DNA of 63,739 bases, the filler included, from Hausera hauseri (Eukaryota), in the NCBI GenBank assembly GCA_046269625.1. It is 10 parts of 10 records of this genome, joined end to end, with 100 filler letters (N's around TTAATTAATTAA, not from the genome) between each part and the next. Parts side by side here need not be neighbours in the genome. Positions count along the whole stretch, not along the records: positions 1 to 11,523 come from JBJURY010094431.1; 9 more parts are not named here. One strand, written 5' to 3'. Numbering within the stretch: the stretch's first letter is position 1; each line of letters opens with the position of its first letter. Position numbers and translations under genes: made by a program. Positions 1 through 41,719 of the stretch are shown one piece after another. Under the pieces are notes generated by a model that had not been told where the DNA came from, did no database searches, and worked only from the letters and a program-made list of their open reading frames with translations.

Positions 1-985
1 GTCTATAACTTTTCTCATCCCCATTCGAATGCCTTTCGTCTACAATCTTACATTGTTCCCTATTCGATTCCAAACGACCAATACATATGATTCCCTTCTT
101 AACCACGAAATCAAGTTCCCACGTGATCATACAAAACCCATCAATCACTAACATAAGCATGCACGTACACATACGCCCCTTGCAACCTCTGTTGACACCC
201 ATTAAACGAGACAAAAGGAAGTAAGAAAAATAATTATAATAATCAATACCTTCAACTTTACATAACTTCTCTCGTTCGTTCCGACAACCACCGACAACGT
301 ACAGATCATCATGTGTCATTGCAGAAATTCCACTGAATAGAAAATTTTCCATCGAGGATGACAAAAACCATCGGTAATTCCATAACGAACATCTCAATAC
401 GATTAAATTCAGTGAAATACTTTCATTGAGTCTACCAAAAAGGCGATAGAAGTACCTCTGTCATTTAAAGTAAGAATTTGCGTGCCCATCACACATCTTG
501 GTCAAACAGGTAACCAGGTGATTCAATTTTCCTTTTAGTTTTAGTCCTCGTTCTAGCAATATTGTCGATAGGTTTCGTCTACGTTTTCTATAATGTAAGT
601 ATCGTCCTTCAGTCAACATACTCAAGTTTTTAAGATGTGCGGTTTCAATGTTATAAATCATGGGTATACCAACAGATTTCAACGTTACGTCATTATGTTT
701 GTTATCACTTATCAATTCTTCAACGATTGTCATAAAGATATTTGTATTATTAGCATAGGAGAAATATATTACAATAACTTTGCCAGTTGAATGAGATAAT
801 TTCCAATTTGACCATTTTTCAAACATTAGACTTGATATTTTCATTGTCATCACGAGAAATTTAGTTCCAAATTGATTCACAATCATTTTCCATAAACCTT
901 CAACATTTCTTTCATTTTTGGCACTGTGTCTGTAGATTCTGATTTCAGATAACCATTGATAGCTTTCCTCTGACTTATTTATCAT
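1..985 (-). pseudogene. LTR-encoded ORF, 3' copy (at least 328 codons, one internal TGA at 461-463), function unknown
   Basis: ORF 461..985 continues in the same frame after one TGA (QRYFYRLFG...LRCSLWNYRW...MLVIDG...) and stays open to position 1. That part aligns without gaps to ORF 7830..8306. Confidence 0.6.
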
Positions 986-1471
986 AATAGAAATTCTCTT
1001 AAAATTTTTAAATTTTCAAATTCCAAATTCTATAATTGTTGATCAATATACAATATTCTCTTTATTATTATTATCATCATTTATTCCTTCTTTCTATGCA
1101 TCTATTATAGACACACACGTATCTAATAACCCATATGTATTCCCCTCCATTATCTATATTCAAGGGCGTCCACAAGGGTTGCGTCACGATTACATAACAC
1201 ATATTTCAATTTCGCATTTCATATATATTTACATTTTTCAATCACACTCCCCTTTTTTCAACCTTACCACACACACAATTAACATTATAAACACAAATCT
1301 TATGTACAATATATGTATATAAGGTCAACATACCATACCTATTCACACACACCTATTTACAAATATATCTATTTAAACACGTTCATTTTTACACACTCTT
1401 TTCATTTATCCTGATCTTGATTTCTGATTGGATCGTTGCCGGATTTCCCAACTATGAATCGGGTCCCAACA
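1..1471 (-). repeat. 3' LTR of the BEL/Pao element (truncated at position 1)
   Basis: Begins TGTTGGGACCCGAT at 1471 on the minus strand, directly after a polypurine tract. Aligns by eye with ~7900-9258. Confidence 0.85.
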
Positions 1472-1485
1472 TTTCCACCCTCCTT
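1472..1485 (-). promoter_or_regulatory. Polypurine tract
   Basis: AAGGAGGGTGGAAA immediately 5' of the TG that starts the 3' LTR. Confidence 0.85.
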
Positions 1486-1499
1486 GGGGCAATCCGGCT

Positions 1500-2760
1500 C
1501 ATATATTTGTCTTCCACAATATCGATCGAATCCAACTGATTTTCTATTTTACACAGCTTGTGCACTGGGCTTTTATACATTTCCACGTTCAGTCTTAGCT
1601 CTACATCTCTTATAACGTTGTCTGTCCCTGGAAAAACCCTCGTTATTTCTGCGACCGGTCAGTGATTTAACTTTTCATTCTTCTTTAATAGCCACACTTT
1701 GTCTCCGATTTTCAATTCTATTTTTTCTTCTTTTATTCTATCACAAATTCGCCATTCAGATAGGAGTTCACTTCTCCAGCGATCCAAATATTCGTTGAGT
1801 AATTATTATATATATCTCCACTTATCTGCCAAGCTGCTCCTTCTCGTTCCGTTTATCTCCAAGGATGTTTTACCGTTGTGTCCAGCTATTATAAAATGGT
1901 TTGGAGTCAGAACGACATCGTTCTTACTGCCATCAACGACTCTAATTAGTGGCCGGCTATTCATTATTCCCTCGATCTCAATTAGTAATGTTTCCAGCTC
2001 TTCGTCTGTCAGGGTGGTTTCCGGAAGTAATTTGTTCAGCGCGTTTTTTACTGATTTGATTATTACTTCATAGACTTTCCCGAAATGAGGGGTACAGGAG
2101 GGTTGAATATCCACCTTATTTCAGTGTCCTTCAATTCTCTTTTAAGACTATATTTATCTATTTGAAATTTAGATATTTTTTGTTCGCTTCTATAAATGTT
2201 CCTCCGTTGTCGGAGACTATCAACGAAGATCTTTCCCTCCGACTTATAAAACGCTTGAGCACCTTTAGGAAAGAATTTGTGTCCAATCCTGTCAACAGTT
2301 CTACGTGCACCCCTCGACAGAGCAAACATGTAATTAGACATATGTACCTTTTTTCGTGTATCAAACCGCGTCTTTGTCGTGTTCTCACCGGTCCTGCAAA
2401 ATCAATTCCGACCTTGTCAAAGGCTTTAAGCGGTAGTTGTGTCCTAAACGCCGGTAATGGTGCCCTTTTGTCCGTATCCCCCTTGCATTTGACATTCTGC
2501 AAACCATACAGTAGTTCTGATACGCTTTGATTAGCTTCTTCATCCTGGGAAACCAATATCTACTACTTAACTCCGCAACTTGATAATTGACTCCCGCCGC
2601 GTGTCGCAGATTCAAATGTATGTCTTCAATAATCAATTTTGTTACGATGCTCTTCGGCGACAGTATTATTGGGTATTTTTGTTTCCAATTCAACCAAGAA
2701 GTAGTCATTCACCGGCTACCCGATCTCAATATGCCCTCGTCATCTAAAATGGGATTCATC
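1500..2760 (-). pseudogene. pol: BEL/Pao integrase (HHCC zinc domain, DDE core, C-terminal domain), frameshifted
   Basis: H...HAAGV...RYW...C..C, then GIDFAGP, RGVHVEL, KRFISRR, IVSDNG, IEGIMNSRPL, spread over ORFs 2385..2708, 2158..2556 and 1806..2114. Confidence 0.92.
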
Positions 2761-3099
2761 TTGGCGATAACACTTTTAGTACTAATTTCTCCATTAGATA
2801 ATAAACTTTTTATTTCCGCATGAAACTTTTTTCTTTGATCCTCCTTTATTATTTACAGTCTTGCTTTCTTTCTCAGATGTACTTCACTTAAGTTATTGGT
2901 TTTCTCTCTTAATGCAACTTCCCTTATTTTTTGTTTTACCACCTCCCAACGGGACTCTGCATCTTGTTCAATGTTAATCGTGCCATCCTAGCCCTGTTGC
3001 TCTCCCTTTGGTGTATCAGTTTCGAAAGTCATCAATGTGAACGCATCATTTCTCCTCTCCTCATCTTTCGGTTTCGTTAGTTCTCTGGGTTGAACCGGC

Positions 3100-3620
3100 C
3101 ATTGGTGTTCTGTCTTTCTTATAAATTCTGGACCGTTCCACCACTCTATTTTTTCTCGTAGCTCCTATATATCTAGTCCTCTAGAAAGATAGTCCGCTGG
3201 GTTGTGTTCCAATTTTACATATTTCCATTGATTACCGGTCGTTTCTTCTTGTATAAAACCCACTCTGTTAGCAACGAACGTTTTGTAATACTTACTGCAG
3301 CCTTTGATCCAAGACAGTATATTCATGCTATCTGTCCAGTACTGTACGTCTTCCTTCTCATTGCACAGGATCTTCCTCACCTTTCTCCCCAGCTTGACTC
3401 CTACACAGGCTGCCATCAATTCCAGTCTTGGTTTGGCGACACACTTTACTGGCGTTACCTTACCTTTCAAGCATATTATCGCTACTTTAATTTCTCCTTC
3501 CACTATCGATCTTAAATAAGCGACTGCCCCATAATCCTACCTTGAAGCGTAGCAAAAAATGTGTATCACAGTGCCGTCGCCTTCTTCAAAGTATAGATAT
3601 CTTGGTACCTTTATTGTACT
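3100..3620 (-). pseudogene. pol: BEL/Pao RNase H
   Basis: YGAVAYLR, PRLELMAA, WTDS, FVANRVGFIQ, WKYV...NPADYLSRG. Confidence 0.9.
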
Positions 3621-3979
3621 CAAACTATCCATGCCTTTTGCCCATTTCTTAATTTTCTTACTTCATGATCTCTTCATCCCAGTCCACACCCACCATCCAC
3701 AGTTGTTGCAATAACATTTTACCCAACAATGTGTAACAACTGAGGAAACCCAGTGGATCGAACACTTTTGCTAACGTGCTTAATAGTGTTCTCTTTGTTA
3801 CCTCCGTTTCTTGTTTATTACGGTCTTCAAAGTCGAATATATCGTCTTCAATTTTCTATTTCATCCCCAACGTCTTGGTAACAGTATCAGTTTTTTCCGA
3901 TATATTAAATCCTTTGCTCGACTCATAACAGGTACTATGTTCATTAACTCACCAGAATTTTATACCCACTTGTGTGGTT

Positions 3980-4996
3980 TCATTCCAGCTTTCTTCCACT
4001 TAGTTCACCGTATAACGAAACATCTTCTTTCTCTGTACTCACTGAATCGATACAGTCATCCATGTACGTAGAATACTCTATCGTCTCTACAGCTCTGGGA
4101 AATTGTTCTTTGAATTTTTCGGCGTTGTGCCTTGATACTAATTGTGCCAGAAAAGTAGAGGAGTTCAACCCAAATACCAGTCCATTGAACTCGTGTGTTT
4201 TGAGTTTCCCATCCTTATACCACAAAAACCTCAGATATTTGTTGTCCTCTGGTTTTATTTTGATCTGTAGGAACATTTCTTGTATATAACATACTACCAC
4301 CCGTGGTCTTTTTCTCATCCTTAATATGATATCCACAATATTCAACTGCAACTTCGGGCCGGGATCCAGGAAATCGTTCAGACACGTCCCTCGATATTTC
4401 GAAGCAGCATCGAAAACTATCCGACATTTCGTAGTGTCCCTTTTGACCTTCATTATGGGGAAGTGTGGTAACAACCAGGCCGTCTCTTGTCCTTTCTGTT
4501 CCTCTATTTCTCGAATATATCCTTCTTTAGTATGCGTTTCTATCACATTTTCATAAGCTGCCTTTGCCGTTTTATTTTTATCCAGCTTTTCCGTTAATGT
4601 TTTCAACCGTTTTTTTGCTATCCATTCATTATTTTCCAATTTTCGTTGTTTTCTTTCGTTCCACGGCAATGGCACACAGTATCTATTTTCCTCGTAAGTC
4701 GTTTCATCTAGTATACTCTTCACTGTTTTATCGTCTCGTTTGGACCTCTCAGGCTCATTCACATCCATATTAAATTCTATCTCCCATAATCTGTTCAAGT
4801 CGTTTTGAATTTTTTCTGTCCTAGTCCAAAAGGTCCTCACAAAATTACTATTTATCACTTTCCTTTCCTTTTTTACTTGTCCTACACAGGTCCAACCTAG
4901 CGGTGTTAATCGTGCCACCGGCGCTCTCCTTTTACCATATACCTCTTTGATCGACTTGTGCAATTCCATAAGATTAGTCCCGATGATTCCATCCAC
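3980..4996 (-). pseudogene. pol: BEL/Pao reverse transcriptase
   Basis: YCVPLPW, LPHFP, RIVFDAAS, LNDFLDPGP, EMFLQI, LRFLW, FGLNSS, YMDD. Confidence 0.95.
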
Positions 4997-5044
4997 TTCC
5001 GACCTAGGTGATTTTCTGGGAAACTTAAAATCCTTTAGGTGTGG

Positions 5045-5497
5045 TCATTTCTGTTTTTCTGTAAACCAATCTACTGCCCTCATTTGCCACTTTGTGTATC
5101 TCATAGCTAGCGCTTCGAATTTAACTTTCATTGACCGTTCCATATTTAATAACACCATATTTACCCTATCGATGGACATCTTAGTCTGCTTCCCTCTGAC
5201 AACTGTTATCGTCAACTTTTCCGTCTTCTTACCGACACCCAATTCCTCACATAGTCTTGAATCGACGAAGCTCTCGGTACTAGCATCGTCCAACAACATT
5301 ATTGCTCTTTTCATCCTATCCCCATTCTTCAACCGCACTTCTACCGTTTTTAGATCTATCCTCTCTTCCTGTTCGCTCGCTTCTGGAAGGCCTTGGGTCA
5401 CATAAGCTCTAACACCCTTTTGTTTATTTTGTACCTCCTTCCCTTCTTTTTCTTTCGACATCCTTGACGTAGATTCTTCTGTTGTTGCACCCACCAT
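5045..5497 (-). pseudogene. pol: BEL/Pao aspartic protease region
   Basis: AIMLLDDASTESFV active-site motif, followed downstream by the DGIIG flap motif. Confidence 0.8.
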
Positions 5498-5581
5498 TTT
5501 TTCACTTGAAATTTTAGTTTTTCGTTCTGATTTTTCCTTATTTTTGCCCTCCTTATCTGACTTCTTATTACCAGTTTTTTC

Positions 5582-5727
5582 ATGTATAAATTTACAATTA
5601 TTCCCATACTTACATTCCCCTTTTCATAATACCCACACAACCTCCTTTGATCGTCTGTACTAGGTAGGTGTGAATATTTACAATTCTCGCCGAATTTGCA
5701 TCGACCGTTCTTATCAAAACTCCAGCA
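5582..5727 (-). other. Tandem CCCH zinc fingers at the Gag C-terminus
   Basis: CWSFDKNGRCKFGENCKYSH is C-x8-C-x5-C-x3-H. Across a 1-nt frameshift near 5615, CGYYEKG(E)CKYGNNCKFIH is C-x7-C-x5-C-x3-H, and the shifted frame joins ORF 5045..5497. Confidence 0.88.
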
Positions 5728-5782
5728 TCTTTGTGACCGATCCTCACGTGGGATGTTAGAACGATTAGATTGCATCTCTTCT

Positions 5783-7234
5783 TTAATCTTTTAATCTTGC
5801 TTTAAACTTTGTGTTTTCATATTCTCGTGATCCTTTTGTAAAATACGTTCTTTTACTTTCTACCAATGAATATCGACCACCTTGACCTGTATTGAACGTC
5901 TCTATCCCTCTCACTCTCTCTATAGTATTACTTATGACTATCGCTTCCTTTTCGATCCAATTCTTCAGTTCCAGAACTGTCCTGTCTGACTTTTTATCTA
6001 TCACATGCCTTTCCCTAAGAAGTGCTATCGATTCTGCAAGCTTTTCCACGAGGCTCTGGTACAACAGACCCCCAGTAAGTTCTTTTGCTCTTCCTAGACT
6101 CCTCAATCTCACGATTATTCCTTCCAGTAACGCTACAAATTCGTCTAATCCTTTTATATCATCCTCCTCTACTGCCTGAAATCTTATTACCTCGGTCATG
6201 AACGCTGCATAGCAGCATTGTTCGCCCCCATAATAGGAATCCAATTTCGCCAGAGATGCCTTGTACCCCTATTTTGATAAATCGAAATTTTCGACTAGCC
6301 TTTTCGGCTCTTTATACAAGAATTGGTTCTGCTGTAGTCGTTTGTATATTTCCGACATTGTAGTTTTGTGGATACAAGTGTCAAAGGTCTTCTTCCATTT
6401 GTCGTACTCTGTAATGACCCCTCCAAATTTCGGTAACTCTAATTTTTGTAACTTCGGCAATATTGTTTTTTCTCTTTTTTCCTTTTCGGACTTCCCATTG
6501 ACTATCATCATCTTGTTTTCTCTCGAACGTCTCTCATAGATGACCGCGTTGATTTTTTTATTTTGATCACCTAACTATTCCATGTCATTCTCCAGTAGCA
6601 TAAGGTTCTCTTTCTTCCTCAATTTTCTTGCTGCAGTAGTTAATACACACAGCTCCCCTTGAAGATCGGTATAAGCTTTTTTATATTTCTGGTGATAGAC
6701 TTTGTATTCCTGATCATCCAAGTTTTCATTTATCAACTTTCTCCGAATCGTTGATAAATCATTGATGAATTTACGCCGTTCTGACAGCCTATCCTCCAAC
6801 TCTTCTGCAGTTAACTCACTTCCACCCTTTAGCCACAACTGTAAATGAATAGTCACATCCTTTTGAATATTGTATTCACTAAGTTTTCTACCGTCCTTTA
6901 GTTGTATCCCATTATATACCAACCGTTGTTGGTCTGTGGGGATTCCTTCTCTTTCCTCGATAACCGACTTCAATATTTCTACTTTATCCCACAATTTTAT
7001 AGCCGTTACAATTATTTTTCCTGAAATTGTTTCGAGAAAGACCGTCGAATCCGATCCTTTTGCTCTAACTGCTTCTTCTTGTGCCAAACTCCCGAAGCCG
7101 GGTTATTCTCTTTCTTTCATCCTAACTGACTCTCGCTTTAATTGTGACTTGTCCTCATCGGATTTACTATCATCAGTGAATTCCATTATCTTCCTTGGTT
7201 TTACACTACTAATTCGCGGTTTTTGTCCGGCCAT
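5783..7234 (-). pseudogene. gag: BEL/Pao Gag with N-terminal ubiquitin domain; interrupted by premature stops
   Basis: ATG at 7234 (MAGQKPR...) is in frame with 6575..7087 across a TAA at 7103-7105. The capsid-type region reads LPKLQKLELPKFGG...W...F...IH, then LDSYYGG...LVEKL. Confidence 0.85.
6821..7048 (-). other. Ubiquitin domain (76 aa, ends LKGG) inside Gag
   Basis: [11 protein letters not shown]...[43 protein letters not shown] aligns without gaps to ubiquitin ([43 protein letters not shown]). Confidence 0.95.
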
Positions 7235-7671
7235 TTTGACTTGATTCTTGGCAACATTGAACCTGGGATATCTTATGATTCCCCACAATTTGTTTAACAT
7301 TTTAAGACAGTTTGTTTCGAACAAAAACCTTTGTTTCCTTTTCCAGTCAGTCCACGATTTTATCCATTGTTGTCTATCCTCTCCCGCCTATAGGTATAGA
7401 CAGTAGGATTCTTTTCTTTTAAATTATTATCGTCCTCGGCGCAAGATTCCGTAACTCCCCATGTTAGCGTCACCTTTGTGAAATAGTCACGATGTTTCAT
7501 TATTTTCACTCCACCATATCTCCTCATCGTGCATATTTTACATAAAGTTCCCGCATTTATTTTAACATTCAAATGGAAGGAATAAGTTCCGGAAACAAGG
7601 AGACGGACATGGATGCTTCGAAAGACCAATGCTTCACGTGGCCTGCGCCCGTGAATCACGGTGCGGAGCAC

Positions 7672-7690
7672 AAACCACGCTCTGCTACCA
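7672..7690 (-). promoter_or_regulatory. Primer binding site, initiator tRNA-Met type
   Basis: TGGTAGCAGAGCGTGGTTT, complementary to an invertebrate-type tRNAi-Met 3' end (...AAACCACGCTCTGCTACCA), lying between the 5' LTR and gag. Confidence 0.8.
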
Positions 7691-7695
7691 ACAAA

Positions 7696-9258
7696 TGGAT
7701 ACATTAAATAGAAAATATACGTTATATTCCTTTGGATGTTATTTTTCCCTTCACCCAAATAATACACCTCATTCATAACATTACGACGTATAATTTTCTT
7801 TACAAGTTTCTCTCTGGGCCTATTTCTTTTCAAGCCTTTTTGTTTTCATACTGATTTACCTCGTCCATCACGCTTGATCGTCCAAAAAATGTACCCCCAA
7901 CAAACTTGTTCCTTACTCCACCCAACTTGACCTCCCCGTTTTCAAGATCCGTTCTTCCCTTTTTCAATTCCTCTAGTTCGTTCTGACTAATGCATATAAC
8001 TCCTCCTATAACCCCAGCATTCAACCTGAGCATGATCACAAAAACCCCATCAATCACTAACATAAACACACATACGCTCATACTTCGCTTGCAACCTCCG
8101 CCGACATCCCCGAGACAAGATAAAGAGAAACAATGAAAACGGTTATAATAAACAATACCTCTGAACTTGTACACCATCTCCAGTCCGTTCTGACGACTAC
8201 TAATATCACGTAAATAACTACATGTCACCACTGAGAGATCACAGAACAGATTCATTCCCAACGAGGTTCGCGAGTCCCACCGACAGGTCCATAATGAACG
8301 TCTCAAGGCGGTAGAGTAATTTTGAAAATCACATCGTAAATATTTATCTCCAGCATATACCTTCGAAAATCAACTTTTGTTGTGACGGTAGTTTCGAAGA
8401 ACATTGTTTGTCTATTTTTTGACGTAGGCTCAATTGCTTGGTCGACGCATTTAAATTCCAAAGGTAGATCATATCATTATGTTTGAGGTCAAATTCATCT
8501 TTTATTTTCATTAATTCAACGACAGGTTTATCAACATCATCTAATTTATCAACGTTTTCCAAATGATCCTCTGAATTAGAACAAAGAAATTCCCAAATTA
8601 ACACTTTCTTTGAATTCATAGTAAACACAATCATTACCAACTTTCGGAATTTGTTTTCTGTATGATTTTTCGTCAATTTCTTTATAGTTTCATTAGATTT
8701 CTATCCTTTGAAATGAGCTTTACAATTAAGGACAATTAACAACTCTCCACAAGATTGAATATTCTGATCTATCATCTATCTTTATGTATTCCAAATTAAC
8801 AATATTTCAAAATTTTAAAATTTAAATTTATTAATTCTTAATAATTTATCAATTTGCAATATATTCCCTTTGCAATATATATTTCTACCTTTGTACTTAT
8901 TCACTATAGGCACGTCATATATAACCGCCCACACAGATCCTCCTCCCTCCGCCTCTATGGGTGTCCACGGGGTTACGTCACAATTGCATAATTCACACGT
9001 GTTTACATTTTCTGATCAAACACACCTCTTTTCTCAACCGGACCTCATACACACACAATTTCAACACAATAAATATAAAATATTATGTACAATATATATA
9101 ATACCAGCATACCCGTTCCCATTCCTATACACACATACCTATGGACAGCTACATCTATTTACACACATTCATCTTTACACATACTCTTTCGTTTACCCTA
9201 ATGTTGATTTCTGATTGGATCGTTGCCGAATTTCCAAACTAACAATCGGGTCCCAGCA
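7696..9258 (-). repeat. 5' LTR of the BEL/Pao element (~1.6 kb; inner boundary uncertain, ~7696 or 7630)
   Basis: Begins TGCTGGGACCCGAT at 9258, is homologous to 1..1471, and ends near the PBS candidates. Confidence 0.75.
7830..8775 (-). pseudogene. LTR-encoded ORF, 5' copy (one in-frame stop and one frameshift), function unknown
   Basis: ATG at 8775 lies 483 nt from the LTR start (486 nt in the 3' copy) and is in frame with 8344..8676. A frameshift then leads into 7830..8306, which is homologous to the ORF in the other LTR. Confidence 0.55.
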
Positions 9259-9960
9259 GTTCTTTTCCATTCTAATTACAGCCGTTCGTGTCAAATGTCG
9301 TTAACAAGAAACAGACTCAATTAGATAAATTGCTAATTATTTTTTATCCATGCAGTTATACGAGATGCGTTGTGAAATTAGATTGTACAAAATGCCTTTT
9401 TCAAAACATTATTTTTTACTCCATTTAACACACTCATGAAATTTCGAAAATGTTTTTGTCTAGTTTGCATTTCAATGTTAAGAAAATCATAAAACGCAAT
9501 TTTTTAACAATCAATTAAAAGACACCTATATTTACAATTAAAATGTTCAATAAGGACCTCCATATGATGGGAAATTGACAATTCTTTTACAATCCCTCTT
9601 ATTATGTATTTATAACATTAATGACTTTGACAATAATTGAATACCTGTGACCTTACGATAACTTTAAAATTACCACGATGACTCATTAGAGGGGTCGATG
9701 AAGTTAGCAGTCTGTTTCGTAACAGTTACCCTACAATTGAAGGGTCAATGATATAGGTCTCTCGAGAAAGTTAGCACCAAGCACCCGCATCGAGCTGTAT
9801 TTCTATGAGTTTAGATTTATATCTCCAACAGTTATTGTGGTGTCAACCGTATGTTGCGGTCCCTTGGCCCATTTTAGTCGGGAACAGCCGAATGCGACAG
9901 TTTAGTCCCGACGGTGTAGCTAGCCGAAGGTCGGCTGTCCTCTCTTGGAGGATCTTGTCG

Positions 9961-10988
9961 ATGTTTACAAATTTATCAGTTTGGAATCGTCAGCATTTAA
10001 ATGAATATCTTTTGAAAGCAAATCAACTTTTGAGAAATTCAAATTTACAAATTTCACCGAAATGTGATGAATTTAAGCGTGCCGATTTTATATTCAAGCA
10101 GTCGGAAGTAGATAGTTTTTATTCTTTACCTGGAATTCCTCTCTCAGACGAAACTCCAATTATTAATGATGATGAAGTGATTAATTATGATATTGAGCAG
10201 ATTAATACGGATGTCATTAGTAAAATTGATTTCGCCGATATTTCTAAAAAGCTCGATGACTATAACCAATTATTCAAACTGTACAAGAAAGGAAAATTAA
10301 AGTCACTTGAAAGTAAATTACCGAGATCCAATTTAGCAAGATTGATAAAAGAAAAAGCTCGACAGTTAAAGCTTTTCTCAGCTCACCAAAGGCAGCCTAT
10401 GTATCGTGCGTCATCAGGGCGTATTGCATCTAGAACTTTAAGTGCTTTTAGTTATGAAACAAGGGAAACGGTGAGTAAACTTAGTCGAAAAGAAATGGAA
10501 ATTATCAAAGGCAATGAAACGATAATTGACGACGACAATCAGAAAATAAAAATCACAATAACCGATGGATATAAAAAGTCAGTCAGCTGTTTTTGGAATA
10601 TTCCATTCCGAGTGCAGTTACCACTAAAGATTCGAACAAGTTGCCATATTTTCAGAGAGAACTTTTGGTAAGTAATCCAAAAGGGAATAATAAAATCCAT
10701 ACTTTAAATGTAAACTTCCAAGCATTAGGAGCCGAATTTAAAACAGACGCAATGTTTAAGAAAGAACAGTTTGATGATATTCCATTTACATTTGCAACAA
10801 CTCCTGTTTCCGGTTTCGTTTCTCGTCAAAGATGTATTAGTGCAAATCAGAAATTGAAATTCTCCAGGCCGATTTCAACGATGTCAGTCGTTTCTAGTCA
10901 AAGATTAATTGCTCAGGAAACTGTGCATGATGATTTTGTAAACAAGAGTATAGATCGTTTTATGAGCTCAATTAGTGCACATGCTTAA
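9961..10988 (+). CDS. Unknown intronless protein (~340 aa) split by a probable frameshift near 10590
   Basis: Overlapping ORFs 9805..10671 and 10593..10988 with protein-like composition in AT-rich surroundings. No motif recognised. Confidence 0.4.
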
Positions 10989-11523
10989 TCGTCTGCGGTA
11001 ATTCATTTGTTCAATTTGACATTTATTTGTTACAATATGTAAATTAGTTAATTTGTTTAAATATTGAATAAATATCCGACGATTTGAATTTTGCGATTTG
11101 AAATTTAGTTCGGCCACTTTCTTTCTGAATTTGATATTTAACTGCAGTCCAACATTTCCCGTTTCAAAGTGAATTTGCAATATCGTGAAATCCTGAGATT
11201 TGGTTTTCATTCCACTTTTTTGAAATCCAGATTTTTCACTGGTCGAATTTCCTGCACACGTCTCAACAACCATTAGTAACGATATACGATATAATAGAAC
11301 CATCCAGCCAAAACGATCGGTGTCTATAGAAAACTAGACCTTTCGAGTTTGTACTTGTTAACTAATGAAGTATAATCGTTAATTAATATTAAACTTTACT
11401 TTCTGTCTATCCTATAATGATATCTAAGTATTTTACTATAAATTGCCACTTATTCATTATATGCCACGTTGTACCGACGCTTAAATGCTTCTAATTAACT
11501 CAAATATTACTTATTTAGATCGG

Positions 11524-13161: not shown

Positions 13162-14001
13162 TCGAATTCATTCAAATAACCCGTTATTTTCATGAGATAT
13201 CAATTATAATACGCCTGTATAAACAAAACTCCAAACTCACGACGACAAACAATGAAATAATTATATAATGATTAAATGTGTAACAATCAATTAATCACAC
13301 ACTACTACAATGTGACTAATTTCACACTCACCGTGTCCTGATGAGTAATTTAAATTATTTCAAATAGTTGGGTATTTCAGCATTGGACATTACTGTTGAT
13401 AAAAATCTAATATATCATATTGATGTCTTCTATTATCATACATTCTAATATAGCAGTTTATCATCGATTATAAATTTATAATGACTATTTTGAAATACTT
13501 AATTTATCATCAATAATTAACGTCAGTTTTCTACAACATTTACGTGGAATTTTACGAATAAAAACAATCCGTACATGATACAGTATTTTCAGATATTTGA
13601 GATGGCATAAACAGTAGCCACAGAACTGAACCAAATAAACATCAGTTGTGGACTATGGAATCGTTACAGACGACAGTCTGTATTCACGTACACACATTCA
13701 CACACTTTAGTTCCGATTGAAAATATCACGTGCAACAGAAATATTAAAACAAATCATGGAATTTATTTTGGAACGTCCGCAGCTTTTTACCATGATAGTG
13801 GATGGAAATGTAAAAATGCAATCCGTTGGGAGAATAATGCGACACTTATGCATCATCTCCACAAACATGCTTTTTCAATCTTTTAAGAAGTATGGGGCTT
13901 TGCCACTCGCTTCCCAATAAAACAATGGAGAAAAAACCGAAATCCGTTCAGAAATGGCTTTGAAAATTCTCACAAAAAAGCTAACAACTGAACTTATAAT
14001 A

Positions 14002-14589
14002 AAACGAATTTTTGTGTAAATATGGGGTTTTTACAATAATTAGCAAAGTATAATGTTGATTAATAATATGAAAATACTTTTTGCCGGGAAAACCAAAATA
14101 ACGCATTGTTTAAAGCTAATAAATTTTGACTACGCACATGACTGATCACAGACTATATTCGATGATATTTTTTATTTCGTCAGAACAAGAAGAAAATCGA
14201 ATATTAAAAGAATATTAACTCAAGAAGAATGAAAATGTAGTCCTAAACAGTGGGCGACATTTGAACAAGTGCCAAATGATGTTACACTTAAAGGATCCAA
14301 ATGTGTTATTTTAGCTTTCTTGGCAAAAAGTATTTTCATATTATTACTCATCATTATATTTTGCATGTCTCTCTGTTTATTTGTTATAAAAATGACCCAT
14401 ATTTACAGTAAAATCCCTCATTTATGGTACTTGTACAATATTTTTCACCTTCATTGAATTATAAAATTTAACAAATTCCACAAAAGAAATGTTCAACAAT
14501 TTTCGCATATTATTAATCATCATTATATTTTGTACGTCTCTCTGACTATTTGTTATAAAAATGACCCATATTTACAGTAAAATTCGTTT
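14002..14589. repeat. Three partial copies of the MITE-like family seen at 17122-17400
   Basis: Shared motif TTTGTTATAAAAA...TTTACAGTAAAAT at ~14300-14415 and ~14503-14589, and a reversed copy at ~14002-14115. Confidence 0.7.
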
Positions 14590-15689
14590 TCTTGTAAGAT
14601 ACTTAAAACATAGACGAAATTTGTGCAATATTGTGTAACATTGGACTCAACAAGGTGTAAATGACACAATTTTCAAACCAATCACGCTACCATTCATACC
14701 AAGAAAATCTCGATGTATGTGCTCTACGTAGAAAAAGTCTCATTTATCATCATTATCATTGCCAGAATCGGAATGATAGAAAACAACTGTTGCAACACAG
14801 TTAAGTAAGTTATTCGGCTTCCTTACATGAATTCAGAAAGATCAGCAGTAGACATGCCTGATAAATTAATGATTTACGATTTATTTATTTATTTGAATAA
14901 CCCGTCGAGTATGTGAACCGATTTCAAAACTCATCAACATTCAACTATGATGATTGCAAAGTTCATATTTCATATTCGAATAAAGACGGCTCACTTTACA
15001 TTTTCCGTAATCGGGGTTAAATTCATCATTTTTTTTCTGGCTTCTAAAACAGCAACTAGTGACGCCGCAGAGATTGCAAGATATGTGTACAAAATGCGAT
15101 GAATGATATTTGTCCATATAAGACTCCAATGTTCGGTAAACGATATTCGGTAGTTACTTAACATGATTGTGACTTTTTGTAACAAATACTTTCGACTGGC
15201 TACTCGGCGGTTTTCAACAAGCGAATCGGTTTTTTGTAACAATAATTTCTTAGATTAACGAAAATATTTGACAAAAATAAAGATATAGAAAGTGCGACAA
15301 AAGATTGAAAATTATAGGCTTCTGTTAATGACAGAGATTTTAGGGTAATTAACGGCTTTTTATGACAAATAGTCGAACGAGTACAACATACTATGCTGAT
15401 TGATAATTTGATAAAATAACACAATTGGAACTTTTAAATGTAACATAAATTTAGCACTTGTTCAACTTCCCCCAATGTGTATAAGGATTTTGAACTTGGA
15501 TAAAATTTTCTTCCATTTTATTCGATCCCGTGTTTTATATTCAATTTATAATATTTTCTCGATATTCTGGCTACTTGTATTGGTAGAAGAAGCAATTAAT
15601 CATTAAACCAATATATTTTAGTTTAGTAGAAGTTAAACAAAGCACAAAACCGAACAATACTGACAGACTATCTAAAATTAAACTACAGC

Positions 15690-15880
15690 CGATTCTGTGT
15701 ATGTCTACCTCTAAAACTTTTTGAACATCTTCAGATATTTTAAACTGCTCTGTTTATAAGATCATTTTCAACGATTTTCATTAAGGAATCTCAGACTTTA
15801 TCACTTAACTTCTGTGGTCTTCCTGATCGAGAATTATTTTCAATAGTTTAAGTCAAATTTAAATGTATGTAGACTTTCTT
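15690..15880 (-). mobile_element. Tc1-like transposase N-terminal remnant
   Basis: Minus-strand TIENNSRSGRPQKLSDK carries the GRP linker motif of Tc1 transposases, followed by stops. Confidence 0.45.
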
Positions 15881-16619
15881 GTATGACTGCAAAGCAAGAA
15901 ATCCACTTGAAAATAATCATAAAAATTAGTAACATATTTTATTTAAACAGATAAGATTTAAATTCGATTTAATTGATTATAATCAATGAAAATAATCAAT
16001 ATTAGATATTTCAAAGTATGAATCATACAGAAATATAAATTCTCTATAAATAGCGAACAGAGCAGTTAAAAATTAAAAATTAAAAAATAAATTTATGATA
16101 TAAAATTTTAAAATATGTAAATCAAGGTTGTAATTCAACGAGTCGGTGACGGAGTATTATCGACAACATACTGATCGTCAAAAAATTCAAGGAAACCTAA
16201 NNNNNNNNNNNNNNNNNNNNNNNNNNNNNNNNNNNNNNNNNNNNTTAATTAATTAANNNNNNNNNNNNNNNNNNNNNNNNNNNNNNNNNNNNNNNNNNNN
16301 ATGTGTTTAATTGCTTGTTAGGGTACTAATTACTGGAAATTATTTAATCGTTCATTCCCACCTAGACCAGACGTTATTCTTGACCACGGTCTTCTGAAAT
16401 GTCCAAGAATATCAAGCCTTTGTGAAATAATTACAGCAGCAAGTGAAAAAATTATTTCGAGATATATAACGTGTGATGATGTTCCCTTCTTCATAATACT
16501 AGTCGAACTAATTGCGAAGCATTTCCCAAATAGTCCCATAATTTTCAAAACCAGTATTACTTGTTGATCGTCGTGATGTAAGGGTCCATTACTGGACTGA
16601 TTCTCCTTCAAGTCAGACT

Positions 16620-17645
16620 TCGTGTCAGTCTGCATCTATCTAAACACACAATGCTATTTGCTTTATTTACCTGCCTTTCTTGAAGTACACGCATTATTTG
16701 TTTTAATTCTTGTTCCATTTTAATTCGTTCACGTTCTTTCATATCAATTCGTCGTATGACATCCTCTATTCTTGCTTCGGTTTTGGTCTAAAATTGAAAA
16801 TATGAAACAAAACCGGTTTTAAAGAAATCGCGAATAATCAGACTTGCTTCTTTTCAAAATCAAGTAATTTCTGATGGATCATTTTCATTTCTTCCTAAAA
16901 TTGAAATACTTATTTATCAACATTTGAATTGGAATTACTCGGGACTGTTGTAAATCTTCATTAATCCTCACTGATTTCCTTTGATTTTCATTACTTTCAC
17001 CACGTAGTTTCATTTCATTGACGTACTGTGTTTCCTACAAACATTGACAGGTGATGAATACATCCACACTCGAATTAAATAATAAGATACCTGGATTTTA
17101 TTTTTACTAACTTTGAATATTAAACGAATTTTACTGTAAATCGTGGTTTTTATAACAAATAGTCAGACAGACGTGTAAAATATAATGCTGATTTGAGAAA
17201 AGTAAAAAGTTCTAAATTCCTAAATGTACTGGGGGGAGGGTATTTGAATAAGTGCTAAATGCTGTTACAATTAAAGTCTCAAAATGCGTTATTTTGCGTT
17301 TCTCGGTAAAACTTTTTTTCACGTTATTAATCAGCATTATATTTCCCATGTCTCGCTGACAGTTTGTTATGAAAACTCAGGTTTACAGTAAAATTCGTTT
17401 CTTTGTGAGAAAAATGGAAATTTTTGTTGTTCTAAATAATTATTTTAAATAGGTTAGGTCATTGCACATTGACTTTTACAAAATACTTTTTAACAATGCC
17501 TTTCCATCCGATTAAAGAACTTGCTTTTATTATCGGCCAGGCGTTCGGAATTGTTTTCATTGGGGTAAGTTTTATTCGGTTTCGGATATGTAAAATTTGT
17601 CCAATGTGTTTCGTCCCATTCCGAAAATGAAATTTTCTTCATAAC
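16620..17645 (-). CDS. 3' exons of a spliced gene with a coiled-coil C-terminus (identity unknown)
   Basis: GT-AG introns of about 30-60 nt join ETQYVNEMKLRG...QQSR, EEMKMIHQKLLDFEKKQ and TKTEARIEDVIRRIDMKERERIKMEQELKQIMRVLQERQ in frame. The upstream extent is less certain. Confidence 0.6.
17122..17400. mobile_element. MITE-like element with ~70-bp imperfect terminal inverted repeats
   Basis: Left end AAACGAATTTTACTGTAAA...TATAATGCTGATT is the reverse complement of right end AATCAGCATTATA...TTTACAGTAAAATTCGTTT. Confidence 0.8.
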
Positions 17646-18999: not shown

Positions 19000-19797
19000 T
19001 CAACAGTCTAAGTTTACAATGTTCCTGATATCATTTTCTATTCGAAATGTCAAAGTCTGGTCTGCATCTGGTCTCTTTTTTGACGGTATTCGTTCAATTG
19101 GAATTAGGACTGGTTTTTGATACTTCATTAGGAGGATATATATTAATTTTCCACTTTTGTGATCATCCTTCAATTTTGATATGACCGATTTGTTTTTCAA
19201 TTGTACAGGTAGCTTGACGTTGAATTCTGCGCCTAATCTTATGGGTAATCGGTATAGCTTTTCATAATCATCGAAGAGGTAAAACATCTTTATATCACTT
19301 GAACGTTCAAATATAAAACCAATCACTTCGTTATTGTAGGTGTCCCATGATTGTAAACTGATTTTGGGTATAACTTGATCTATATAGAGAGGGGGTTCAA
19401 CGGAATCTATCACTACGGGAAAACTAAAGTTTCTCGTGTATATAAGTATTCCGTAAGGGAACGTGAATGTTTCAACCGTAGTCAATCCTTTTATAATCCT
19501 TTCGGTGAATTTTATAAAATCGGTTGTCTCTGTTTGAATTGCACAAGATACTTTTTGAATATCTTTATTATTCCAATCATGATTTGATGCATTTTCATCT
19601 TCTTCACTCGCAAGCTGATCTTCCATCTGTAAATTCTTATCTTCATCGGCAATGATATCTGAGATTTCTGATATAGAGGGAGTTTTCAATTCTTCCATTA
19701 TTTCATCTACAATAGCCTCTGTGTTCTGATTAGTTCCTCCGGTTGAATGATAGATCCATGCAAAATCCGACAGGTATTTTTCTCTATTGTAAAACAA
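19000..19797 (-). CDS. Unknown accessory ORF (265 aa), possibly a frameshifted continuation of 19707..20855
   Basis: Long open frame inside the element, with an acidic linker followed by a globular-looking region. Confidence 0.6.
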   Translation of the reverse strand: MFYNREKYLSDFAWIYHSTGGTNQNTEAIVDEIMEELKTPSISEISDIIADEDKNLQMEDQLASEEDENASNHDWNNKDIQKVSCAIQTETTDFIKFTERIIKGLTTVETFTFPYGILIYTRNFSFPVVIDSVEPPLYIDQVIPKISLQSWDTYNNEVIGFIFERSSDIKMFYLFDDYEKLYRLPIRLGAEFNVKLPVQLKNKSVISKLKDDHKSGKLIYILLMKYQKPVLIPIERIPSKKRPDADQTLTFRIENDIRNIVNLDC

Positions 19798-20855
19798 CTC
19801 CCCGGATCAACTACATTATTAAATGTTTCCTGCGGTGTCCATGATACCTGGAAAGGGTTTGTTACCAACTGAAAAACGTCCATAGTGAGTTTCAATTTGC
19901 CGTGGTCGTCTTGCGCATAACCTTGACCATTTTTAAATCCAGGTAATTTCAAAAGAGTACTGATATTTACTAACGTTAGTTGTTGGAACGTGCGTCCAGT
20001 AATTTCTTCGTGTTTCAGTAAGTCTACCACTCCAGCAAGATAATTGAAAGGAATATCGAAAACCTCTATCATCCTGTGGGTTTCTAATCCGATTACCACC
20101 GTTCCAAGCAACCAGTTAATCATTTCTTTTGTGACATCAAATATGTCTTGTATATGATAAGCGATATATTCTGGTAATATGCCATGCCGTATTGAGTTGA
20201 CGTTATGTAACTTCTTCCTGTTAGCTACAATTGCTTTGTATAATATAGCACCTCTTTTGTTGGCAATAATGACGTGAATGGGTAGAGGGCTATTATCTTG
20301 CATATAACCTGTGGATACAGTTAATATTCTGATGGTATTGCTCTGACAAGTATTTATAAAATTGACCTTGGTTTGTATTATTGTCTCCGGCGGGTTATGT
20401 GCTAAGACCATAGGTCTTGGCAAATACAAATGTTTTTCCGGCAGAAGACATTCGATTATCATAATTATTGGAAGGTACAATGGTCTGACTTGGATCAAAT
20501 CAATACTCATAGGGGTATTGATAAAATAAGTTTCTTCTTCGCAAATCGAGTTTGTGATTGCATCAGAATATCGACTTTCATTTCTTGTTTTTAAACAAAT
20601 CATTCCTCTGGCCACGTGTATTACTATCCCATCAATAGCATCTGTTTTAGCCATATATTGTTTTAATTCAAATTGCTGAGATTCATGAATTGTATATATA
20701 CCAAAATTCCTATTCATGGTTATTTCGTGCTTTAATTGGTTGGGGATACGAACCACATTTAAAGCTATGAAACACTCAGTTTTCACCATTTGTCTTCTGA
20801 TGTTGTTATAAAAGGTTTTTGACAAGGTTTTATTAAAACTACTTCTTGAAACCAT
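19707..20855 (-). CDS. Accessory ORF with a C-terminal REX4/ISG20-like (DEDDh fold) domain lacking catalytic acids
   Basis: HVIIANKRGAILYKAIV...HGI...FDVTKEMINWLLGTVVIGL...LTLVNIS..L follows the REX4 pattern VSIVN..G.VLYD..V...SGI...F..V..EV..LL.G.ILVGH. Domain at about 19863-20333. Confidence 0.6.
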   Translation of the reverse strand: MVSRSSFNKTLSKTFYNNIRRQMVKTECFIALNVVRIPNQLKHEITMNRNFGIYTIHESQQFELKQYMAKTDAIDGIVIHVARGMICLKTRNESRYSDAITNSICEEETYFINTPMSIDLIQVRPLYLPIIMIIECLLPEKHLYLPRPMVLAHNPPETIIQTKVNFINTCQSNTIRILTVSTGYMQDNSPLPIHVIIANKRGAILYKAIVANRKKLHNVNSIRHGILPEYIAYHIQDIFDVTKEMINWLLGTVVIGLETHRMIEVFDIPFNYLAGVVDLLKHEEITGRTFQQLTLVNISTLLKLPGFKNGQGYAQDDHGKLKLTMDVFQLVTNPFQVSWTPQETFNNVVDPGSCFTIEKNTCRILHGSIIQPEELIRTQRLL

Positions 20856-22173
20856 AATTCTGAACTAACGTTTGAAAATCTAATTGATCTGCGTGGTATT
20901 GAGGATGTAGTTTTGAATACAATAAGTTTGATTCTATTTGTGAATCGTTTCTCGTCATTTTTGGGTTTTGGCGTTTCATTTTGAATTTCTGTTGATTGAA
21001 TTGATAGAGGACTGAAAATAAATTAAATTCATTTAAATACTCACCTTTGTAGCTTTGTATACAACATACAACCAATGAGCATGTTAGAAGTTCAACTATT
21101 TGTGGGGACGCATGTAGTGTGTGCGATGATTGCTCGTGTAGATGACTAATTTGCAATCGCCATCTTGAAATTAGTGGGCAGTGACACGTGTTAGTGTCAG
21201 TATGACTGTGTCTGACTATTTTTGGAATAATTAAAGTGCCTATAGCCAACGTAAGCAACAAAGCTATACTTAATACAATGATTAACAAAGCACATATAGT
21301 AATACTTAGCTCAACATTATCAATTTTTGGTCTCATAGTCCGAGATTCGTTTCTACTATCTTTTTTATTATAACTAAATTTAACTACATTATTTATTTTC
21401 TGTAATGTTTTAACATAAATTTCTGAATAGTAGGTACAGTTCTTTACTACTACTAAATATTTAGTATCTGAGCTTAATCCTATGCAATAGGCATATTTTT
21501 GTTTTCTTTCAAAAATAATTCTCTGTTTATGGTGTTGGTTTATACAAGTTATACTAACCCATGCATTCCGAGTATTCGTTTGATGATTCCAAGCGAACTC
21601 TATTCTATCTTGTTTAGGATAAGTTAGTACAAACAAGTTATCCGTAATTTCTATGTCATTATACTTAGCCATCTTTTTATACTCCTTATAGGGTATGTTG
21701 CATATATTTTGTTCGGTCATGAAAGTAGTATCATACACAGAATCATTAATTTTAAATGGTATTAGACATTTAATGCTAGATTTAACTGTCAAATGTAAAT
21801 CCCATCTCTTTTCTTTATTGATCTTAAAAATTAGTGCTAGTAGGGAGAATGGTTGATTTATAACCAATAAAAGACAGGTTAAAATATTGTCTTTATATAG
21901 ATCCGCGAAAGCTAATTTGTCTTTATAAGAAATCACTATTTGTACTATGTTGCTAGTAGGTCTCTTTTTAAATCTTATACAACCTTTTTCAAAGTTTGGT
22001 CCTAACACTTGCATTTCTTTGTTAAATATCTCGTCACCAGATGTATGATTTTGATTCTGTTTTATTAGTTGCACCATTGATTCATAGGGGATGTTAAATT
22101 GACCATAACTCATATGAGTGCATGATAACCAAATAGTAAATACACAAATCATAGTTAGCAGATTGGTGGACAA
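20839..22173 (-). CDS. Type I membrane protein-like extension of Pol: hydrophobic signal-like segment, FN3-like domain, TM helix
   Basis: LLTMICVFTIWLSC, then IEFAW...IGLSSDTKYLVVV...YVKT (FN3 Trp and Tyr-corner pattern, ~21403-21642), then LSITICALLIIVLSIALLLTLAIGTLII (~21223-21309). Same frame as integrase. Confidence 0.7.
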   Translation of the reverse strand: MSTNLLTMICVFTIWLSCTHMSYGQFNIPYESMVQLIKQNQNHTSGDEIFNKEMQVLGPNFEKGCIRFKKRPTSNIVQIVISYKDKLAFADLYKDNILTCLLLVINQPFSLLALIFKINKEKRWDLHLTVKSSIKCLIPFKINDSVYDTTFMTEQNICNIPYKEYKKMAKYNDIEITDNLFVLTYPKQDRIEFAWNHQTNTRNAWVSITCINQHHKQRIIFERKQKYAYCIGLSSDTKYLVVVKNCTYYSEIYVKTLQKINNVVKFSYNKKDSRNESRTMRPKIDNVELSITICALLIIVLSIALLLTLAIGTLIIPKIVRHSHTDTNTCHCPLISRWRLQISHLHEQSSHTLHASPQIVELLTCSLVVCCIQSYKGEYLNEFNLFSVLYQFNQQKFKMKRQNPKMTRNDSQIESNLLYSKLHPQYHADQLDFQTLVQNYGFKK

Positions 22174-22284
22174 TAACTTTGGTGATGTAAACCCGAATTT
22201 TCCAGTATACGATTTTGGAGCCTTTGTTACATTTTATATGGAAACATTCTCTATTTTTCCAGGAGACTTTTCTATGAACAGGGT

Positions 22285-24075
22285 TTATGGTCTTACTTCC
22301 ACAACTTTGTATGGTCCTTTGCCAGTGCGGGTTAATTTTAATGATCTTCCTTTAGCTGTGAGTGGATAATGTATCACGACAAAATCTCCAATTTTATATG
22401 GATTTGACTGAGCCTTTTTATTATAGTACTTGGTGTAGGATTTTTTATAATTATCTCTAACCGCTCGCGCTTGTTCTCCATATTCACTTAACTGTTTTAG
22501 TAATAGTGTATAATTTTTTTCTTGCAGGTTACCCGTAAATGGCAGAACTGTTGGTAGCAGCTTGACATCCAGTAGCAACAACGGAAGTCTTCCAAACATT
22601 AATTCGTATGGTGTTTTATTTGTACTTCTCGTTGGTGTGGTATTCATAGCGAAAGCTACAGTTGGTAATTTATCTGGCCCATTTTTCTGATCTGCAGAGA
22701 CTTGTACGGATAAAATTCCTTGTACAGTTCTATTCGAACGTTCAACTTTACCATTACATTGTGGATGATAAGCTGTAGTTAAAACATGTCTAGTATGTAG
22801 CACCTTTGTGACTTCATTAAACAACTGACTTGTAAAATACGGGCTTTATCTGTTAATATTAATCTAGGTAATCCTAAAACGCATATTAATTTGTTGAACA
22901 ACTCCATGGCTATTGTTTCCGTAGTCATAGCTTTTAATGGGATTAATATAATGTAGCTTGTGTAATAGTCAATAAAACTCAATATATATTTGTAACCTGA
23001 TTCCGAGGTCGGATAAAATCCTGAAATATCCATTTCACATATTTCCATAGGTGCTTTTGGCTCTGGAAGTGTTCCAAGCAGTGGTCTTATACATCTTCCC
23101 CTATCCCTTCGGGTTGCGCAAATCTTACAAGATTTGACCCAATTGATTATGTCTTCTGTCTGATTTGGCCAAAATTATTTGAGTTTAATACGCTTTATGG
23201 TCTTGCCTAACGATGGGTGACCAGCTAGTTGAGAATCATGTTCTTGAAGTAAGACTGATTTTATCAAATAATTAGGTATTACAATTAAGGCTTTATCGTT
23301 GCATATGTATTTCAGTATATTTTTATCTATAATCAATTTGCTTTTGTGGTCTGTCAGCCATTCAGTTAAACGTTTATCAATATTAGGCATTTCTGACGTA
23401 CGTACGTACTGCTTCACTACATAAAGTAAAGGATCGTCATCTTGGACAGTTGCTAATTTGTTTGTATTTAGATTCGAGAATTCTGTCATCATCATAGTAA
23501 ATTCGTGTTCATCTATCTAAGTAAGTGCTGCAGAACTGATCTCAGGATATAGGGTTCGCGATATAGCATCTGCATCGCTGTGAAGCCTTCCTGGTACGTA
23601 TTTAAATTTCGGATTGTAGTTTAATAATTCTAATTTCCACCGTTGGATTCTATTATAAATACGCTTGTTTTTACAATCAAGTTTTTCTAATGCTTGGTGG
23701 TCTGTATAAACTATAACTGGGTAACCATATATATAAAATTCGTAATTTCTTAAGCCTTCTAGAATTGCTGACAGTTCCAATTCAGTAGCTGAATAATTTT
23801 TCTCTTCTTTAGTTAAGGCTCTTCCACCATATGCTACCACATTCAATTCTTTCATTAGGATATTGCTGCGCCAAAATATAGCTTAAACCATTTAAACTCG
23901 CATTCGTCTTTAAAATAAATGGTAATTCAAAATCTGGGTATTGTAGAATCGATGCGGAAACCATTTTCTTTTTCATGTCAAATGCGTTTTGGTGCTTTTC
24001 TTTCGAAATGTATTTCTTATCGTTTCGTAGTAATTCATATAATACACTATTTATTTGGGAGAAGTTTTGTATAAA
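22285..24075 (-). pseudogene. pol: Gypsy pol: RT connection, RNase H, integrase with GPY motif
   Basis: EKNYSATELE, VYTDHQAL, DADAISR, EHDSQLAGH...C..C, LILTD, TTAYHPQCNGKVERSN, TPYELMFGR, GKGPY. Confidence 0.95.
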
Positions 24076-41304: not shown

Positions 41305-41660
41305 TAGAGTAATCGAAGGCAGGCCCTTCGCAAAGATTCAATTGGAAGATTTGGAGGTTTATTCACTAATAGACACAGGATACGAAATATCACTGATAAA
41401 ATATGATTCAATACCACAATTCTTACGGAAACAATTATATCCACCTCCTACGACAGACCCAGGAAGCATTGGAGCTTTCGGACAATCCTAGAAGAGTAAA
41501 TTCCGATGGAAACCAGAAATTTACATAATGGGATAATCTTTTCGTCATGAATTCTCAGTAATGGAGCAATTAACGGATGATGTAGTGCTAGGATGCGATC
41601 TATTGAAACAACCACCTAATATAGCAATCGATTTCAATGCAGGCAAGTTGATAGAACTTG
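41305..41660 (+). pseudogene. pol: Retropepsin-type aspartic protease
   Basis: RPFAKIQLEDLEVYSLIDTGYEISLI (DTG at 41372-41380) and DVVLGCDLL. Frameshifted, so absent from the ORF track. Confidence 0.88.
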
Positions 41661-41719
41661 GCCCAAAAAAGGTGTTAAAACCATTAAAGACAAAAAATTT
41701 GGAGAAGTATGGATCCCCG

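Follow-up and report, generated by a model that had tools for sequence, protein, structure and literature searches.

BEL/Pao retrotransposons (Belpaoviridae, Semotivirus) are described in the ICTV profile as having long terminal repeats (LTRs) of 0.2 to 1.2 kb, one to three genes, primers complementary to Arg or Gly tRNAs, and no gene in the LTR (PMC8742986); the same LTR range is given in the accessible text of PMC3118150. A tRNA-Tyr primer is reported for one BEL/Pao family in an excerpt of PMC4580426, and the tRNA-Met primer 12-mer of GalEa elements is printed in the available part of PMC5445492. A triple Cys-His box is described for BEL/Pao Gag, Tas being without it (PMC554778, in excerpt), and additional genes are listed for other families in the portion of PMC2774666 that was available. 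No description of an LTR-encoded frame or of a ubiquitin-Gag fusion in BEL/Pao was found in the accessible open-access literature. The word ubiquitin does not occur in the available main text of PMC3118150 and PMC6238403, and the excerpt of PMC8556966 held nothing on the topics sought.

The element reported here shares with BEL/Pao the LTRs starting with TG, the primer site, the polypurine tract and a single gag-pol of order PR-RT-RH-IN with DUF1759, DUF1758 and Peptidase_A17 domains. It differs as follows: its LTR, of about 1.56 kb, is beyond the described range; it has a coding frame within the LTR and a ubiquitin ahead of Gag; CCCH fingers stand where the triple Cys-His box is typical; and its primer is tRNA-Met, whereas the ICTV profile names Arg or Gly. 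We conclude that it is an atypical BEL/Pao element with a real, selected coding frame in its LTR.

The window, that is, the whole stretch of DNA that was analysed (63,739 nucleotides from Hausera hauseri), is made of ten pieces joined by nine spacers (44 N, 12 bases and 44 N each). The element lies inside the first piece (1-11523), on the minus strand, as do all of its features described below. Its gag-pol (1452-6820) is decayed, with stops and frame changes, and bears DUF1759, DUF1758, reverse transcriptase (RT), Peptidase_A17 and integrase regions. The Pfam E-values were 7.6e-12 for Peptidase_A17, 7.9e-5 for DUF1759, 2.9e-5 for RVT_1, 0.005 for rve and 0.14 for DUF1758, several of these matches being under the curated cut-off because gag-pol is fragmented. 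The Pol order and the Pao-specific domains are collinear with those of two relatives, P0004 and P0005, and gag-pol is flanked by LTRs, with a primer site and a polypurine tract, which is the BEL/Pao layout. The primer-binding site (7679-7690) is an exact tRNA-Met 12-mer, matched only once in the whole window when up to one mismatch was allowed, and present in none of 5000 shuffles of the region. Because the primer site is at 7690-7679, the 5' LTR (7696-9258) measures about 1563 nt, its 3' end being placed, by conjecture, at the last CA before that site. The 3' LTR (1-1471) is cut by the window edge and is of a lineage other than that of the 5' LTR; a polypurine tract read from the sequence (1472-1485) lies just before its start at 1471. 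An imperfect second primer-like motif, which we take to be tRNA-Tyr-like, was noticed 62 nt downstream of the tRNA-Met site (7618-7628). This site at 7628 was dropped as a primer site for the exact tRNA-Met match at 7690. No tRNA gene was found in the window.

The rest of the window holds other mobile or unassigned sequences. Just outside the 5' LTR, on the plus strand, two overlapping open frames of 298 and 137 codons (9775-10988) gave a best Pfam E-value of 0.019, and the first gave no PHROGs match. An integrase-like frame on the minus strand is followed by three long frames of 464, 385 and 268 codons with no Pfam match (19000-22845); the first of these looks env-like by eye, with an apparent signal peptide and transmembrane segment, and the second presumably bears a faint resemblance to a DEDDh exonuclease. 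Cys-containing frames on the plus strand (39095-39850 and 44584-45285), beside a Gypsy-like pol (41620-44512), had no Pfam match and look by eye like envelope-glycoprotein fragments. Gypsy-like gag and RT pieces (32083-33851, 48520-49485), a mariner-like transposase (62559-63050) and short repeats (around 14000-17400) were also seen. A G+C-rich frame on the plus strand (51881-52873) encodes an Ig domain and a transmembrane segment, and resembles the C-terminal part of a fish semaphorin; its composition sets it apart from the rest of the window, whose pieces may therefore have more than one origin.

The two LTRs are not the near-identical pair expected of a single insertion. Alignment of gag-pol to its relatives revealed 13 stops in about 1700 codons, which corresponds to some 0.05-0.07 substitutions per site since insertion and to an expected LTR-LTR distance of about 0.10-0.14. 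The K2P distance between the LTRs was 0.23 over the first 265 nt, 0.55 over the non-coding positions 266-485, 0.89 over codons 1-66 of the frame and 0.55 over its C-terminal block. Since this divergence greatly exceeds the decay of gag-pol, the two LTRs stem from two lineages and most of their divergence predates insertion, so that the pair sets side by side two lineages that were once active. The copy arose either by recombination or as a chimera of the assembly, two origins that look alike here. Similarity between the LTRs is high up to position 265 and much lower beyond, and one may speculate that U3 was shared while two templates supplied R-U5; recombination at a later time, or misassembly, would fit as well.

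The first 483 nt of the 5' LTR (8776-9258) are not coding-like (6 breaks, compared to 7.3 in shuffles) and form a putative U3-R, with CCAAT at LTR position 41, TATA-like motifs at 159/161, 336 and 378, and AATAAA at 427. According to a motif scan, CCAAT is at position 41 in both LTRs and AATAAA at 387-427, and these and the TATA-like motifs are all upstream of the ATG of the frame, which suggests that the frame would be in U5, not U3. Alignment of the non-coding first 485 nt of the two LTRs required 14 to 31 gaps, depending on the penalty.

ATGs at 985 and 8775 had been noted in an earlier sequence-only reading as opening homologous LTR frames with few lesions, and this proved to be the case: they are at LTR positions 487 and 484, and the frames are crossed with one and two breaks, respectively. 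The frame of the 3' LTR copy (2-985) spans 328 codons with one stop (461-463) and is still open at the window edge. In the 5' copy, a first piece (8347-8775) has a stop at 8701-8703, and its codons 1-66 are collinear with 788-985; after a frame change within 8347-8369, a second piece of 179 codons (7830-8369), which includes a Cys-rich and hydrophobic segment, runs to the next stop at 7830-7832. Among 1500 dinucleotide shuffles the mean numbers of breaks were 13.3 and 11.8, and none was as low as the observed values. None of 5000 Markov simulations was as open as the LTR frames, and four non-coding controls showed no break deficit (P 0.20-0.79).

The second piece holds a block shared with the 3' LTR copy (7986-8306 and 77-397), of 107 codons and 63.7% identity, with no stop in either copy, compared to 5 to 9 stops per copy in the five other frames. 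This C-terminal block had also been said to align with no indel, which depends on the settings: it is gap-free at the stiffest gap penalty, but has 4 and 15 gaps under two laxer ones. From the ATG onwards the first 66 codons align gap-free, with matches at 97 of 198 bases (compared to 58.6 +/- 7.0 at other offsets, z 5.5), a homology that BLASTP alone missed. In the middle of the frame no reliable alignment between the copies was obtained. Trp, Cys and hydrophobic residues are conserved between them. Coding on the opposite strand was rejected, the plus frames holding 5 to 8 stops per copy. Further copies of the LTR frame were found nowhere else in the window. A scan of the genome contigs yielded 4 loci from 28 stretches, the best of which (L001, 41%) is a 3.6 kb fragment starting inside gag. 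This BEL/Pao gag-pol fragment (1-3623 of L001) lies within a bacterial symbiont genome record, and is probably host DNA carried into the symbiont assembly.

What selection acts on could be read from the aligned codons. Neutral simulation predicted 11 to 14 stops in the 173 aligned codons, and one was observed (P <= 0.00005); stop purging was also significant in each aligned block alone (P <= 0.006), across 36 to 51% divergence. For the C-terminal block the maximum likelihood dN/dS was 1.0-1.2 (grid interval 0.6-2.5); it was 4.4-5.3 for the first 66 codons (interval 0.2-10, not significant, p 0.09-0.14) and 1.5-1.6 overall. Mismatches in the shared block were distributed 45/37/35 by codon position, and mismatches per codon were alike in all three phases. 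Strong purifying selection on the residues of the C-terminal block is excluded, and positive selection in the LTR frame is only hinted at. Selection keeps the frame open, while its residues are barely constrained. The proposal of a selected accessory gene is therefore upheld for the purging of stops but not for the residues, at which selection is not seen with dN/dS about 1. The N-terminal part is indeed the more variable one, as had been proposed (K2P 0.89, compared to 0.55). A divergence specific to the frame was discarded for the C-terminal block, whose distance equals that of the adjacent non-coding part of the LTR.

The stop at 7830, where the LTR frame had been thought to end, exists; coding-like sequence nevertheless goes on beyond it, over the LTR end and the primer site, and reaches a ubiquitin domain. 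A 161-codon open frame (7360-7845; longest-run test, P 0.0007 with 3000 shuffles) overlaps the stop, crosses the LTR end and reads the primer site in frame. It overlaps in turn the gag frame, open from 7381, whose leader (7043-7381) is interrupted by a stop at 7103-7105. From ATG 8775 to the ubiquitin, 5 breaks were counted in 578 codons (0.87 per 100), compared to 21.5 +/- 2.6 in 1500 shuffles (minimum 13), and from stop 7830 to an alternative Gag ATG at 7234 there was 1 break in 595 nt, compared to 6.6, a value as low being found in none of 3000 shuffles; the regions so tested were picked after the frames had been seen, and the margins are wide. The five breaks are the stop at 8701-8703, the frame changes within 8347-8369, 7830-7845 and 7360-7381, and the stop at 7103-7105. 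Gag-pol has 19 breaks in 1840 codons (1.03 per 100). Decay alone predicts about 6 breaks between ATG 8775 and the ubiquitin. In a codon-usage test the in-frame score was +0.08 to +0.16 for held-out gag-pol, positive for two of six leader pieces (+0.05, +0.02) and negative for the other four; a real CCCH piece was likewise negative. The 5' LTR has no other ATG at LTR positions 341-484, and the 3' LTR copy has three at positions 371-395, upstream of the ATG of the frame. Structured RNA was discarded as an idea: Rfam gave one match (E 0.39), and the RNA fold around the primer site had a z of -1.6.

Directly before Gag, and in frame with it, lies a ubiquitin fold with a terminal GG (6821-7042; Pfam PF00240, E 2.7e-18). 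The stretch across this ubiquitin-Gag junction (7042-6578) is naturally free of breaks. An RT search retained 152 of 1695 candidates at E <= 1e-30, and the 120 listed carry Peptidase_A17 and/or DUF1759. Named matches came from molluscs, a sponge, cnidarians and a sea cucumber (34-43% identity), and the best other match reached 48%. A full ubiquitin match was present in 2 of the 120 listed relatives, and the ubiquitin-tail GG motif preceded Gag in 4 of the 74 listed relatives carrying a gag stretch (P0003, P0004, P0005 and P0007). In a FastTree of 118 of the 120, drawn with neither an outgroup nor named clade references, and with P0101 and P0117 excluded because their coverage was short, these four and the element belong to a clade of eight rows with support 99; the three remaining rows begin within Gag or Pol and so fall outside the ubiquitin scoring. 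On sequence comparison, a ubiquitin-GG directly before Gag marks a BEL/Pao clade.

What lies upstream of the ubiquitin varies between these relatives: a polyubiquitin-like junction in the case of P0004, and an HSP90 fragment (PF00183) in that of P0007, both of which look like in-frame captures of abundant host mRNAs. The tail of the element's ubiquitin differs from the canonical tail of P0004. About 120 residues, starting at Met, precede the ubiquitin in P0004, and P0003 and P0005 start inside it; a leader as long as that of the element was seen in no relative. Two CCCH-type zinc fingers (5582-5727) occupy the place of the relatives' triple Cys-His box, and the box itself was absent from the three frames of 6300-5000. 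CCCH fingers were found in none of the 120 listed RT relatives, and a CCHC motif in 88 of them.

Searches for homologues of the LTR protein gave none among 341 candidates at E <= 1 (proteins of 180-574 aa), and, with both copies aligned, none among 2005 at E <= 10 (proteins of 98-574 aa, long fused forms being outside this range). The single match among 1.84 billion representatives (E 8.4e-5) was to a protein containing nine Ig repeats, with about 28% identity over 61 residues for every repeat, and was rejected because its score is a sum over repeats. Pfam matched only pieces of the protein (Kelch_1, E 0.07; VP19C, E 0.08) and nothing on the whole; the best E-values were 0.053 in PHROGs and 0.36 among PDB sequences. 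The atlas yielded no usable match for 7833-8369 or 7363-7845, with a recognition score within the range of shuffled sequences. Two AlphaFold2 models had a pLDDT of 34, the C-terminal part being beta-rich in one and helical in the other. Among the checks suggested with the sequence-only reading, frame conservation was confirmed in both LTRs, dN/dS was about 1 in the C-terminal block, and structure prediction returned no confident fold.

We consider it somewhat probable that the LTR frame is the N-terminal leader, of about 580 residues, of a single polyprotein that would begin in U5 and be clipped from Gag by host deubiquitinases. Genomic RNA, to judge by the motifs, would start early in the 5' LTR. 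Ribosomes would start at ATG 8775 in U5 and read about 360 LTR codons; translation would then cross the primer-binding site and the internal leader before reaching ubiquitin, Gag and Pol, for a total of about 2440 codons. Host deubiquitinases could then cut after the ubiquitin GG, by analogy with pestiviruses, leaving a Gag-Pol with a fixed N-terminus. The 3' LTR copy would be a passive reverse-transcription copy of U5, and all five breaks would be decay after insertion. Gag-Pol output needs such a frame to be open, whatever it spells, so stops and frameshifts would be purged while residues drift. A deubiquitinase-clipped leader would explain most simply why a frame whose residues are unconstrained stays open as far as the ubiquitin and breaks at the decay rate of gag-pol, and we lean slightly towards it. 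Against it, there is one decayed copy only, and each of its three frame changes and two stops has to be put down to decay; as the window edge cuts off the 3' LTR short of the counterpart of stop 7830, the junction is visible in one copy only; and the in-frame ATG at 7234, in good context, could start Gag alone. The lack of so long a leader in any relative, the codon usage of four leader pieces, the non-canonical ubiquitin tail, the upstream ATGs of the 3' LTR copy and the failure of the searches to find a homologue or confident fold count against it as well. A more elaborate version, which we hold to be rather unlikely, would make the region before Gag, including more than 1 kb of U5, a ubiquitin-cleaved bay, occupied here by a functional, fast-diversifying accessory protein (for example, a host-silencing antagonist or a membrane protein aiding spread) that would be released by deubiquitinases and swapped between subfamilies together with R-U5.

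The sequence-only reading had favoured a free-standing gene in the manner of sag or nef. This is probably wrong: the ATG is preceded by promoter-like and poly(A)-like motifs, which would place the frame in U5, and the open path continues to ubiquitin-Gag. In such a scheme one or more accessory genes would end near 7830 and be translated first from genomic RNA, and Gag would start at ATG 7234 through splicing, reinitiation or internal entry; a dN/dS near 1 would then be the mean over conserved sites and positively selected ones in an antagonist of host defence. Both copies do have about 315-330 codons collinear from the ATG, and the conserved Trp, Cys and hydrophobic residues and the high N-terminal point estimate of dN/dS would be at home in such a gene, as would the fast evolution of plant ORF0 (PMC3485330, in its accessible text). 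ATG 7234 is in a better context than ATG 8775, and donor-like sites exist at 7859 and 7473; the sole acceptor-like site, however, is at 8571, with none before gag. The coding-like 595 nt from 7830 to 7234 would be left unexplained, the excess of dN/dS over 1 is not significant, and mismatches are alike in the three phases. We regard a free-standing gene as doubtful. Both products could also be made at once, if programmed recoding at one junction gave mostly a short LTR protein and sometimes the ubiquitin-Gag-Pol fusion. Retroelements often use recoding, every junction has overlapping frames, and there are three frame changes where, by our estimate, about two are expected at the gag-pol rate. 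The three overlaps, however, contain no canonical slippery heptamer, the 3' LTR copy has no frame change at the first junction, and decay alone explains the break density, which makes recoding improbable.

If the LTR were only 270-480 nt long, the frame would be ordinary internal sequence and the left copy would start a tandem element of a sister subfamily. Close similarity is indeed confined to the first 265 nt (K2P is at least 0.55 afterwards), and such a length would fall within the range described for BEL/Pao (PMC8742986). The window's sole tRNA-Met 12-mer match, however, sits 1.57 kb from the LTR start, and by eye no primer-like site common to both copies lies near positions 270-500; a short LTR is thus very improbable. 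The open frames could finally be free of selection, as a compositional accident or the remnant of a captured gene. A dN/dS of about 1, the lack of a homologue in the searches above, the low-confidence folds and an atlas score like that of shuffled sequences are all compatible with this. Yet no simulation or shuffle was as open, the flanking controls were not open, and openness has outlasted 36 to 51% divergence; this reading is strongly disfavoured, and we give it hardly any credence.

If the clipped-leader account is true, the polyprotein of an LTR retrotransposon begins about 1.1 kb inside its LTR, and Gag maturation is left to host deubiquitinases. It would also account for a rare signature, a strongly selected open frame with a dN/dS near 1, and in-frame capture upstream of a ubiquitin cut site would offer retroelements a way to acquire accessory genes. 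Whatever the LTR frame proves to be, the ubiquitin-Gag clade and the exchange of CCHC for CCCH fingers hold.

Several known systems resemble parts of this arrangement. In the yeast Ty1 element, GAG starts inside the 5' LTR and the primer site is within coding sequence; the translation start in the LTR and the passage through the primer site are the same as those proposed here, but Ty1 uses only a few LTR codons, compared to about 360 in the element, and is without ubiquitin. The glyco-Gag of MLV carries an accessory function on a short N-terminal Gag extension with a hydrophobic segment, which starts downstream of the primer site. The likeness is in this extension and its hydrophobic segment, whereas glyco-Gag is not released by ubiquitin. 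The sag gene of MMTV and the nef gene of lentiviruses are separate genes in U3, expressed from spliced RNA; they are similar in being extra, fast-evolving coding capacity in or near the LTR, but the frame of the element is suggested to be in U5. The same capacity is found in plant ORF0 and other additional ORFs, which, in the accessible parts of PMC7264820 and PMC3485330, are in the internal region, while that of the element is within the LTR. In pestiviruses, ubiquitin insertions are cut by host ubiquitin hydrolases, which yields the authentic N-terminus of the next protein (PMC8310069, in excerpt). The cytopathogenic strains BVDV Osloss, CP1 and CP Rit are alike in having captured a ubiquitin within a polyprotein, where it acts as a cut site for these hydrolases; in the element such a cut is predicted. 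Their insertions are sporadic and occur in an RNA virus, whereas the ubiquitin of the element is common to a retrotransposon clade and is placed before Gag; by analogy, the element most likely works as the pestivirus ubiquitin insertions do.
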